Virus record (IMG/VR): IMGVR_UViG_3300017987_005501
Strand: one strand, 5' to 3'
DNA from: a virus
Lineage: Duplodnaviria > Caudoviricetes
DNA length: 64,000 bases
The position numbers and the translations under genes were made by a program. A model generated the notes under the pieces. The model did not search any database, was not told where the DNA came from, and worked only from the letters and a program-made list of their open reading frames with translations. Shown here piece after piece: positions 19,597 to 47,102 of the stretch; position 1 is the first letter of the stretch; each line of letters opens with the position of its first letter.

Positions 19597-21558
19597 ATGA
19601 ACATGAATGGCCAAATTATCTACCCCGACATCTCTTCACAAGAAGATGAAGATCCTCGTAGTTTATATAAACGAAACTTAGAGAATCTTAGGCGGTATTT
19701 CCCCCAGCTACATAGAAAGATTGAAGAGCTAGAAGATGACGGAACTTGCCGTACTATCGAAACAATTTCTGGCAAAAGGACTCTTCAAGTTTTAACGAAT
19801 GATGCTTGGTACAATCTTAGTACCACAGTTGATCCGCACAAAGCCGCAATCGAGAGAACACAAGCTTTACAAAAAGAGAGAAAAGAAAAAGACTTAGAAG
19901 ATTGGTTCTTCCTCGGGGTTGGCCCAGGACACGAACTTGTCGACTATTGTGCTACGGAGAAAAAAGGCTTTGTTCTTGTTTATGAGCCTAACCCACAAAT
20001 CTTTAAGAAGTCAATGGAAATCGTTGATTACTCGGCTTTCTTCAATAGAAAAGAAAAATATCTCTTCTTAACAGAAGATCGGCAAGAGTTTAGCGAGCTT
20101 TTGTTCCAGTTCCTTGCCCGAAACTTTTTACCGAATCTGACTATTTCAATTAACGAGCATGAACTTCGGGTATACCCACAAGACTTCCAAACCGTTCAAA
20201 AAGAAGTAAAAGACTGTATTAATCGCTTTATGGTTAATATAAACACAAGTGCAAAATTTGGAAAGAGATTTGCTTATAATATGCTTCGTAATGTCCCAGA
20301 AATATTAAAGACTGGGGATGAGCGTAAATACGAGAACGCATTTTCTGGAATTCCAATCATTGTCGTTGCGGCGGGGCCCTCTTTAACAGATTCCTTAGAG
20401 GACTTAAAAAGAGTTCAGAAGAAGGCTTTGATTGTTGCGGTTGATTCAGCCCTTAAACCTTTACTTGATGCCGGGATCGAACCCCACTTTGTTACGTCAA
20501 TCGATATTCAAGCCAGTAAAAGCGTTATTTATAGAGAAGTTGAAAAGGAGTATTCTGATAGCAAGTATACAGTAGCTCAAGTATTATATACCCACCCAAG
20601 GCTTACTCAAGCCCACGCCGAAGAAAGAAAGAAAATTTTCCTTTGGGTAGCCAGTCCTGTTTCTTCTTGGCTTGAGAAAAGCTTTGGGAAACACCCCGAT
20701 TTCGGGGAATGTCTAAGTTGTGCTCATGCTGCTTTCTACTTTGCGCGATTCCTAGGAGGGGACCCAATTGTCCTTGTAGGACAAGACTTGTGCCATTCAA
20801 AAGGCGACAAAGAAAGGCACGTGAAGGGAGCGATTGGAACACATAGCTCCCGTCCTGGGGCACACAGATATAATTGGGAAAAGGATCCTGGGAAATGTTT
20901 AGTTCTCGGAAATGACGGGGAACAGAAACAAAGTGTTCTATCTCTCGCTGCGTTTATTAAAACCTATGAAATTGCTATTTCCCAAACAAAGCAAAAGGTA
21001 TATAACGCAACAAGAGAAGGAGCTAAAATTGAGGGGGCTGAATGGAAACAAATAGAAGATCTTGAAAAAGATATTTTGGTTGAAAACCTTGACCTTTTTG
21101 AGAAAATAGATGGACTTCATCAGATTACAATAGATAAGGATATTGAGAGATCCTTACGGAAGGAATTAAGGCATTTCAAGGGTTTTCTAGATACGGCACA
21201 AGAGAATAATAAAGCTTTACGAAAAACATCGAAGGAAGCCCAAAAAATTCTTAAGAGAAGACATTTTACTAATGAAATAAGAACTCGCTTAGCAACCCTC
21301 GATACGACAAGGCAGCAAAAGGAAGCTGCAATTTTAGGAAACGCTAGTTATTCGGAGATGCTAAAGCAACCCTTGCTTCAGTTAAGCGTTCGCTTAAAGC
21401 TAGAGGATAAAAAAATAGCGAGAGAAACAGATCAAGTTAAAAGAGGAAATCTAATCTGTGATCGCTATCTGACCGTTACACCAGTCTTAGAAGAAACGAT
21501 TAACTTTTTCGATAAGACGCTCGATATAATTCAAAAGAAAATTAAGGAGTCGAGATAG
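19597..21558 (+). CDS. Motility-associated-factor (Maf / DUF115, MptE-like) glycosyltransferase
   Basis: [10 protein letters not shown]-terminus, [62 protein letters not shown]-terminal helical bundle. Confidence 0.8.
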
Positions 21559-21559
21559 G

Positions 21560-45700: not shown

Positions 45701-47102
45701 TTCCAGTATCCCCAACTAGTCCAGTAACCCCTAAAGCAAATCCAGTTGCTCCGGCAATTCCTGTTTGGCCTTGTTGGCCAATCTCTCCTTGAAGTCCCGT
45801 TGCCCCAACAAGTCCAGTAATTCCAATACCTCGGATTCCGGTTTGTCCTTGCTGGCCAACTTCTCCTTGAAGTCCTGTCTGTCCTTGGATTCCAGTATCC
45901 CCCTGCGGACCTAATCCTGTATATCCCCGAATACCAGTAGGGCCTAGTAACCCAGTTTCTCCAAGAAGGCCAGTAATTCCTTGGATTCCCGTTTTTCCCT
46001 GGATTCCAGTTGGGCCTTGGATTCCCGTTGCCCCTATTAATCCAGTTATGCCTTGGATTCCCGTTTGTCCTTGGATTCCCGTTTCTCCGGATAATCCAGT
46101 TTGTCCTTGGATTCCAGTATCCCCAAGAAATCCTGTTACTCCCCGGATTCCTTGGATTCCCGTTTCTCCTTTAATCCCCGTTTGTCCTTGGATTCCCGTT
46201 GCGCCAACAAAGCCCGTTAATCCCCGTAGCCCTGTTTCGCCCATAAGTCCCGTATGCCCCCGAAGACCAGTTTCTCCGGTTACGCCCGTAGGCCCGGCAA
46301 GACCAGTTTCTCCAACAAATCCTGTGATTCCTTGGATTCCGGTAGACCCCTTAACACCCGTTTGGCCTTGGATGCCGGTTGCTCCTGTAAATCCAGTAAT
46401 TCCTTGGATCCCAGTGTTTCCGGCGAGGCCTGTTTGGCCTTGAAGACCAGTCGAGCCAACAAATCCAGTGACCCCTTGAATTCCTGTAGATCCTTTAATT
46501 CCAGTTTGTCCTTGGATTCCAGTATCACCAATAAATCCAGTAATTCCTTGAATTCCCGTTTCGCCAGCAATCCCAGTTTCGCCCCGAATCCCGGTAGGAC
46601 CAAGTAATCCTGTTTCTCCAACAAATCCTGTGATTCCTTGGATTCCCGTATCACCAATTAGACCAGTAATTCCTTGAATTCCCGTTTCTCCTTGGATTCC
46701 AGTCTCACCAATTAGACCAGTAATTCCTTGGATTCCAGTATCCCCAACTAGACCAGTAATCCCTTGGATTCCCGTCTCCCCCGCAATCCCAGTTTGTCCT
46801 TGGATTCCCGTTTCTCCAACAAACCCAGTAGTTCCTTGTATACCTTGGGCACCAGTTTGGCCTTGAATGCCAGTAGTTCCTTGGAAACCTGTAGGACCTT
46901 GAAGTCCGGTACCGCCCTGGGTCCCTTGTGCACCAGTTTGACCCTGGATTCCGGTATTACCTTGGAAACCAGTAGGGCCGGGGAATCCTGTTACTCCCGG
47001 AGGGCCCCCGAAAAGACCAGTCGGGCCTTGAAGTCCAGTGTCACCTTGTGCGCCAGAACCTCCACCCCCTCGGCAGCATTTTGTTGATCGGATTCTTACC
47101 AT
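36702..47102 (-). CDS. Giant collagen-like protein (3466 aa) with three globular inserts
   Basis: Single uninterrupted 10.4-kb ORF; Gly every third residue, hexapeptide G-X-T-G-h-X; N-terminal [10 protein letters not shown]. Confidence 0.95.
40482..41021 (-). repeat. Globular insert copy 3 (180 aa) in giant collagen
   Basis: DKVCYDF...LCLDETTK; nearly identical to copy 2. Confidence 0.9.
41120..42125 (-). repeat. Degenerate 18-nt tandem array encoding G[QSGL]TGL[AS]
   Basis: About 1 kb of units such as gacctgtttgaccagcaa / gacctgttgatccagcaa; bounds approximate. Confidence 0.85.
42369..42908 (-). repeat. Globular insert copy 2 (180 aa) in giant collagen
   Basis: DKVCYDF...LCLDETTK. Confidence 0.9.
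43309..43434 (-). repeat. Seven perfect copies of an 18-nt repeat (plus strand cctgtttctccagaaagt)
   Basis: Counted directly; encodes the SGETGL run. Confidence 0.9.
44523..45062 (-). repeat. Globular insert copy 1 (180 aa, more divergent) in giant collagen
   Basis: DIVCYDF...TCVDETVK. Confidence 0.9.

Follow-up and report, generated by a model that had tools for sequence, protein, structure and literature searches.

Maf proteins, the flagellin nonulosonic-acid glycosyltransferases represented by the Magnetospirillum enzyme of Protein Data Bank (PDB) entry 5MU5, by Clostridium botulinum CbMaf and by Campylobacter PseD/Maf, are to our knowledge known solely as modifiers of flagellin. Here we analyse a Maf-family gene at positions 19597..21558 (plus strand) of the IMG/VR virus record IMGVR_UViG_3300017987_005501, a 64,000-nucleotide (nt) stretch of Caudoviricetes DNA that we call the window, together with the operon of collagen-like fibre genes that runs towards it on the opposite strand. 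An earlier, sequence-only reading had joined the two into a single system in which Maf would decorate hundreds of Thr residues on the fibres. The locus is best read, in our view, as two separate features placed tail to tail, a minus-strand fibre operon and a plus-strand Maf–ClpC unit. The window Maf appears to belong to a recurrent phage module in which the enzyme is accompanied by nonulosonate biosynthesis genes but not by flagellin, and we tentatively favour virion proteins other than, or not specifically, the collagen Thr repeats as its acceptor.

The phage enzyme has in common with the flagellin Mafs a three-part architecture, the fold, the catalytic Asp/Ser/Asp and the GPS motif, and its donor, like theirs, is likely a CMP-activated nonulosonic or octulosonic acid. 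It departs from them in being the product of a huge-phage gene, in having no flagellin beside it in the 74 kb of DNA that we read (the window plus about 10 kb past its end, roughly a quarter of the phage genome), in its low identity of 25–29% to cellular Mafs, and in its neighbours: a gene for a FadD-like ligase comes before it and a ClpC-like gene is coupled to it, with no cytidylyltransferase seen nearby. The model for our favoured reading, in which phage enzymes O-glycosylate the proteins of their own virion, is found among the mycobacteriophages, whose GT-A/GT-B hexosyltransferases are encoded inside the structural operon, adjoining the capsid and tail-tube genes, and modify virion proteins in the cytoplasm. 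Unlike enzymes of that type, the phage Maf lies on the opposite strand, in a unit of its own behind a terminator-like hairpin, and the sugar transferred would be a nonulosonate.

On the fibre side, the exosporium protein BclA of Bacillus is likewise a Thr-rich collagen stalk ending in a jelly-roll knob, trimeric and C1q-like in BclA, whose collagen is of the GPT type and carries rhamnose/anthrose oligosaccharides O-linked to Thr, attached by enzymes not known to be Mafs. The phage knob, as modelled, weakly resembles C1q and ExsFA-type jelly rolls; unlike BclA, the phage fibres are Pro-poor and place a hydrophobic residue at every second X. EPclA, the side tail fibre of an E. coli O157:H7 prophage, also sets a collagen stalk between globular domains and, as in the phage fibres, prefers Gln and Thr at Y (PMC3368898). 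It differs in being Pro-rich at X and in carrying many charged residues, and the window fibres, Pro-poor throughout, are far longer (up to 920 triplets); recombinant EPclA, although non-glycosylated, is stable (PMC3368898).

An apparently intact Maf enzyme in a huge phage

The gene for the putative CMP-nonulosonate:protein Ser/Thr O-glycosyltransferase encodes 653 amino acids (aa), and the Maf/DUF115 assignment made in the sequence-only reading is borne out by family, fold and catalytic residues alike. The central DUF115/MptE-like domain, of GT-A-like type, matches PF01973 over residues 228–402 (E 5.2e-36, 124 bits against a cut-off of 34.6), the N-terminal domain matches PF20157, Maf_flag10_N (E 3.6e-9, 36.9 bits against a cut-off of 23.5), and the NCBIfam PseD domain model aligns to residues 102–603. 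An AlphaFold model of the protein, calculated with 29 homologues in the alignment, reached a pLDDT of 89.4 and a pTM of 0.85. Its top fold match in the PDB is 5MU5, the Magnetospirillum Maf that provides the sole solved structure of the family, over the full length (E 1.9e-18, TM 0.55), with archaeal MptE kinases and sialyltransferases ranking far below.

The putative catalytic triad is likewise in place. D303 aligns with position 324 of 5MU5, S374 lies in a GGS-type motif at a position occupied by Ser or Thr in 27 of 29 sequences, and D397, the equivalent of position 415 in the Magnetospirillum Maf, falls within the GQDL motif, which is invariant, as is the GPS motif that the protein also contains. 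In other Mafs the Asp/Ser/Asp residues are required, as established by mutagenesis (10.1101/2020.06.03.131540). The C-terminal third (residues 514–651) is modelled as a helical bundle, and a C-terminal helical module of this kind sets acceptor specificity in Maf-1 and in the separate factor GlfM (10.1101/2023.12.03.569772). The phage Maf looks genuine, full length and apparently catalytically intact. From the observed family membership, fold and catalytic residues we infer that it is very probably an active CMP-ulosonate:protein O-glycosyltransferase, and we approach its donor sugar and acceptor below, in equally conditional terms, from the co-occurrence statistics observed.

The window is part of a huge phage, since the identical Maf protein occurs on contigs of up to 283,534 bp assembled from marine sediment and seawater metagenomes. 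A tail-sheath match at 4579–5541 (phrog_15433, E 1e-49), the tail-fibre PHROG matches of the fibre operon and an Acb2/Tad1-like gene further back the phage origin.

Co-occurrence of Maf with nonulosonate, flagellin and collagen genes

To place the gene among other viral Mafs we relied on an alignment-based scan of IMG/VR, which returned 55 loci with Maf relatives (L007–L061), 50 of them covered by whole-record searches; a single-sequence search of viral contigs with the window Maf had yielded no close relative. IMG/VR contigs are frequently fragments, pattern-based scans sample such collections rather than exhaust them, and adjacency statistics of the kind that follow can neither prove nor rule out an enzyme–substrate pair within one phage.

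Clustering of the open reading frames (ORFs) near the phage Mafs recovered a GNAT acetyltransferase and a cytidylyltransferase at 30 of the 55 loci each, an aminotransferase and a PseB-like dehydratase at 25 each, and an oxidoreductase and a short (~215 aa) NeuB-like protein at 21 each, while the large terminase and the portal protein were each found at 15. At the level of whole records, NeuB was present in 34 of the 50, including all six of those that are at least 90% complete. In most of the at least 55 viral contigs with a Maf, genes for nearly all of a nonulosonate pathway are present as well, in many cases immediately upstream of those for terminase, portal and capsid. Flagellin, by whole-record search, was found in none of the 50. 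Near the Mafs of L007 and L016, those nearest to the huge-phage lineage, we also observe a conserved protein of ~190 aa with 20% Ser+Thr, encoded directly after Maf and followed by terminase and portal genes (L007 2736–3299; L016 11230–11811), which is a candidate acceptor in those phages.

The co-occurrence of DUF115 with G-x-T collagens across phage genomes, which had been named as a check on the fibre-glycosylation proposal, did not emerge when examined from either side. From the Maf side, no collagen run of at least six triplets lies within 10 kb of any of the 55 loci, and PF01391 collagen was found in none of the 50 whole records. From the collagen side, a strict DNA pattern of five G-x-T hexads showed such arrays to be very common among viral contigs, with at least 120 loci hit; among the 36 of these records searched in full for DUF115, at most one contained it. 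That single candidate (G065) was rejected as a Maf: the match is a short DUF115 stretch of non-Maf type, which lies 13 kb from a fibre of GAT repeats in a phage of high GC. Nor was DUF115 found in a 211-kb phage contig bearing a Pro-free collagen gene of 663 triplets. A further collagen record is a complete 131-kb phage with direct terminal repeats (G064), whose fibre modules are 52–57% identical to the adaptor and knob domains of the window fibres and whose 103 collagen triplets carry Thr at 78% of Y; it encodes neither Maf nor ClpC.

Cellular genomes served as a positive control. Flagellin lies within 10 kb of Maf at 49 of 80 cellular loci (32 of the 46 with full flanks), and collagen at none of the 80. 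Because flagellin is found near so many cellular Mafs, the acceptor of a Maf is normally encoded beside the enzyme and adjacency is informative. In the window and its 10-kb extension no ORF matched flagellin, whether with Pfam or with a flagellin hidden Markov model (HMM) built here, in agreement with the absence of flagellin noted from the sequence earlier.

Relatives and origin of the phage Mafs

Just two proteins are close to the window Maf, at 46% and 43% identity. The next-closest, at 25–29%, belong to canonical flagellar islands with flagellin, FliD, FliS and FlaG alongside NeuB and PseF genes, and the best cellular matches in this range are spread over Bacillota, Nitrospirota, Planctomycetota and Desulfobacterota. 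In a FastTree phylogeny of 139 Mafs, the phage sequences make up at least four and at most about 11 groups, interspersed among cellular Mafs that are linked to flagellin. Those of the three huge phages form a single clade with 100% support, neighboured by two other phage Mafs with a sub-threshold support of 94. Since the deep branches are weakly supported and many branches are long, we claim from this tree only the pattern of repeated capture: judging by these sequences, phage Mafs appear to have been taken up several times from bacterial flagellar glycosylation islands.

A tblastn search with Maf against 50,697 GenBank phage records gave no match and PHROGs contains no Maf family, so phage Mafs are visible only in metagenomic collections. 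The Maf family is known; its phage setting without flagellin is new, and the module is apparently undescribed, as our literature search found no description of a phage Maf, a phage DUF115 protein, nonulosonate glycosylation of phage virions or cassettes of Maf with nonulosonate genes.

The block kept in all three members of the huge-phage lineage, and the only one, is ligase–Maf–ClpC (17819–23923 in the window, 8348–14354 in L001 and 556–5169 in L003). Its first gene (17819..19477, plus strand) encodes a FadD-like AMP-forming acyl-CoA ligase (PF00501, PF13193), which matches long-chain-fatty-acid-CoA ligase models below their equivalog cut-offs and is 43–48% identical to the genes in the same position in L001 and L003. 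It is separated from Maf by an intergenic stretch (19497..19596, plus strand) that reads as a terminator-like hairpin with a T-run followed by an AT-rich, promoter-like TATAAATA. The gene for a ClpC/ClpA-type double AAA+ unfoldase (21560..23923, plus strand), assigned by family matches, starts 1 nt after the Maf stop, and Maf and the ClpC-like gene are adjacent or overlapping in all three lineage members. The plus-strand unit closes with a gene for a DenV-like pyrimidine-dimer DNA glycosylase (23929..24477, plus strand; PF03013, 24.1 bits against a cut-off of 23), the end of which overlaps the end of the fibre operon.

Not far from the Clp ATPase gene lie a tmRNA (15163–15512, tag DEPVYAMAA) and SmpB (16930–17367), and the ClpC-like protein has an LGF motif of the ClpP-docking type, with no ClpP gene within the window. 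The idea that ClpC might hold collagen chains unfolded for glycosylation was dropped, as the tmRNA/SmpB neighbours and the LGF motif point to a simpler reading in proteolysis.

The collagen fibre operon

The fibre operon comprises ten minus-strand genes from 47102 to 24441, spanning 22.7 kb with gaps of at most 18 nt. From the end of Maf it is 2.9 kb to the last gene of the operon and 5.7 kb to the nearest collagen gene. All five collagen proteins lie where the sequence-only reading had located them, all match PF01391 and all have non-collagen end domains.

The first gene (36702..47102, minus strand) encodes a giant collagen-like fibre of 3466 aa, in which Pfam and triplet counts resolve 24 collagen runs totalling 920 triplets, along with three internal globular ‘bead’ domains and a C-terminal jelly-roll knob. 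Two fibre or spike proteins follow on the same strand. One, of 843 aa (34153..36684), combines an N-terminal adaptor, a NosD-like beta-helix, 18 collagen triplets and a C-terminal jelly-roll knob, and the other, of 1163 aa (30643..34134), an N-terminal adaptor, a beta-helix-like body, 52 collagen triplets and a C-terminal domain. The adaptor is common to these two, and the knob of the 843-aa protein is homologous to that of the giant. A pair of paralogous fibre proteins of 383 aa each (28450..29601 and 27295..28446, minus strand), assigned from collagen Pfam and tail-fibre PHROG matches and triplet counts, share a layout of N-terminal collagen, globular domain, short collagen, Thr-rich linker and C-terminal domain. 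Structure prediction gave the knob a jelly-roll fold (pLDDT 83.7), which weakly resembles (TM ~0.5) trimeric cement proteins of phages, the knobs of tail needles and jelly rolls of the C1q type. A collagen stalk with a knob is the familiar design of phage fibres and of BclA.

The repeat pattern is also as had been described from the sequence alone, with Thr in nearly every second triplet, G-x-T-G-h-x, and Pro scarce. Across the five proteins, 496 of 1052 G-X-Y triplets have Thr at Y (47%), and in the giant protein 92% of adjacent triplets switch between Thr and another residue at Y; X of the non-Thr triplets is filled by Ile, Leu, Val or Phe, and Pro stays at about 5% (4.5% at X, 1.7% at Y). 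In bacterial collagen-like proteins, glycosylated and unglycosylated alike, it is normal for Thr to occupy about half of Y, with ~48% in Gram-positive ones (PMC3368898, Table 4). The pattern is an ordinary bacterial and phage route to a collagen helix without hydroxyproline.

The remaining members of the operon, all on the minus strand, carry no collagen. They are a 340-aa protein with 22% Ser/Thr (29611..30633), three small genes without a family match (132, 295 and 158 aa; 25514..27293) and, last, a patatin-like phospholipase (24441..25526; PF01734, E 1.8e-25), which may be a virion-associated lipase. In the 383-aa paralogues, a mucin-like Thr/Ala linker with up to seven Thr in a run joins the second collagen stretch to the C-terminal domain; such a linker would be a more conventional target for O-glycosylation than a triple helix. 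Lipoprotein-type signal peptides are present in the 132-aa product of the operon (25514–25912, minus strand) and in the product of 9859–10950 (minus strand), a He_PIG/Hoc-like Ig-domain protein with 29% Ser+Thr.

Donor sugar supply

Although no donor-pathway cassette surrounds Maf in the window, a 231-aa NeuB-family gene lies some 45 kb downstream of it, ~2.9–3.6 kb past the window's end (L005 13896–14591), next to a 319-aa gene without a family match. Its product matches a TIM barrel and has no SAF domain, with motifs, recognised by eye rather than in an alignment, that resemble both metal-binding His motifs of NeuB. Short NeuB-like genes of this build (210–245 aa, TIM barrel only, no SAF) are those that recur at 21 of the 55 phage Maf loci; by BLAST, the copy of the present phage groups with the longer NeuB cluster and not with the short one. 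Mafs accept several donors, CMP-Kdo and CMP-Neu5Ac included (10.1101/2020.06.03.131540), which makes a donor supplied by the host conceivable.

A further source had been suggested in a YvcK/GlmR gene that might feed the donor pathway. The gene itself is present, encoding a YvcK/GlmR-type UDP-GlcNAc-binding protein at 59971..60891 on the plus strand (TIGR01826, 303 bits against a cut-off of 196; PF01933), but it is a regulator that lies 38 kb away with nothing linking it to Maf, and a connection between the two is speculation.

Possible acceptors of the phage Maf

We suggest that the phage Maf, intact as an enzyme, derives by capture from a bacterial island for flagellin glycosylation. Its most likely activity is the transfer of a CMP-activated nonulosonic or octulosonic acid to Ser/Thr of a protein in the cytoplasm of the infected cell; the sugar could be made in part with the phage's short NeuB-like gene or be drawn from the host. 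Decoration of virion surface proteins would be the usual role of the phage Maf module. A virion-protein acceptor is favoured because the phage Maf cassettes are equipped with a donor pathway of their own and lie next to genes for morphogenesis, and for the window we regard virion proteins other than, or not specifically, the collagen repeats as a serious possibility, albeit one that falls somewhat short of probable. Several observations weigh against it. The proteins of the fibre operon, together with one lipoprotein, are the most Ser/Thr-rich in the window, which makes the fibre-operon proteins the obvious local acceptors. The closest relative, too, has a collagen fibre ~13 kb from its Maf, with a fibre-like operon converging on ClpC and Maf. 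Apart from the NeuB-like gene, moreover, the 74 kb read yielded neither a cytidylyltransferase nor any other gene of a donor pathway.

The proposal that Maf O-glycosylates the Y-position Thr of the collagen stalks, at up to ~500 sites per chain set, stabilising or masking the fibres as in BclA or vent-worm cuticle collagen, we consider unlikely. Several points speak for it: the Maf looks intact, no flagellin is encoded nearby, a NeuB-family gene exists in the same phage, Mafs tolerate several donor sugars including Kdo (10.1101/2020.06.03.131540), and the fibres present hundreds of exposed Thr whose neighbours, Gly on the one hand and Ile, Leu, Val or Phe on the other, are similar to the apolar context of Maf glycosites (PMC11339370). 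The Maf unit and the fibre operon do abut, and the closest relative of the window Maf shows the same layout. Its 34-kb contig starts inside the collagen gene that opens the fibre-like operon. The gene has hexads of the G-I-Q-G-L-T type and then a knob that shares 38% identity with the C-terminal domain of the giant fibre (E 5e-22), and the contig encodes in addition a PseF-like cytidylyltransferase, an epimerase, a nucleotidyltransferase and a phosphohexomutase. This relative is nevertheless the sole positive co-occurrence of Maf and collagen that we found. The layout is kept although almost all intervening genes differ between the two contigs, which a functional link would predict as well. 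Since only two related genomes are involved, and since a He_PIG-domain gene also stays near the ligase–Maf–ClpC triad in both, inherited gene order is a sufficient explanation and, in our view, the best one for the adjacency of Maf to the fibre operon. Collagen is absent from all 50 Maf phages searched and any DUF115 from all but at most one of the 36 collagen phages, homologous fibres occur without a Maf in the complete 131-kb phage, and the two features form separate operons on opposite strands with different upstream motifs. Thr at ~48% of Y is general in Gram-positive collagens and a phage collagen fibre folds stably when unglycosylated (PMC3368898), while Mafs fail to glycosylate even non-cognate flagellins (PMC11339370). 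Were the proposal nonetheless true, collagen fibres coated with hundreds of nonulosonic acids in the huge phage and its kin, the unusually long 920-triplet fibre among them, would amount to a viral ‘sialo-collagen’, and the retargeting of Maf from flagellin to collagen would create the first class of non-flagellin Maf acceptors.

Alternatively, Maf could act in trans on the flagellin or another protein of the host, and could thereby alter flagellar glycans in the course of infection, for example to block flagellotropic competitors or disturb motility, which we hold to be a rather unlikely but credible option. The nearest cellular homologues reside in flagellar islands with flagellin, FliD, FliS and FlaG, flagellin lies near 61–70% of cellular Maf loci, and the full Maf architecture is kept, down to the helical C-terminal domain of the kind that gives Maf-1 its specificity for flagellin (10.1101/2023.12.03.569772). 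On the other hand, identity to the flagellar Mafs is merely 25–29%, Mafs are narrowly specific for their cognate flagellin (PMC11339370), and many phage Mafs come with a whole donor pathway beside morphogenesis genes, not in positions typical of lysogenic conversion. Finally, the protein might not be a protein glycosyltransferase at all but act on a non-protein acceptor, serve another pathway with the FadD-like ligase and ClpC, or be inactive. That ligase–Maf–ClpC alone is conserved throughout the lineage, that Maf and ClpC are translationally adjacent and that the DUF115 fold is common to MptE pyrophosphokinases would fit such a role. We judge it very improbable, given the N-terminal Maf domain, the full-length match to 5MU5, the presence of the Maf catalytic triad and the existence of other phage Mafs that lack both ligase and ClpC.

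Our results thus lower the claim of collagen glycosylation and draw attention to the ligase–Maf–ClpC unit and to the short NeuB-like genes. Dozens of uncultured phages carry Maf with nonulosonate genes and no flagellin, implying either non-flagellin acceptors, such as the virion proteins that we favour, or a rewriting of host flagellar glycans by phages; new Maf acceptors and rewritten flagellar glycans would each be new biology.

Upstream motifs and other genes of the phage

A motif of the type TTTGGAA(A/T)AA occurs ahead of the collagen operon (~47110–47280) and of two other units (3440–3540 and ~500–560), whereas the stretches upstream of Maf and several other genes are TATAAT-like; the two motif types may mark different temporal classes. 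Elsewhere the window encodes a peptide deformylase, a methionine aminopeptidase, a NusG-like protein, UvrD and ThyA. The Acb2/Tad1-like gene (PF24729) at its end (63460–63753, plus strand) is an anti-defence candidate, and just past it (L005 16634–20257) are encoded a Ser/Thr kinase, ribosomal protein S21 and gyrase A and B.

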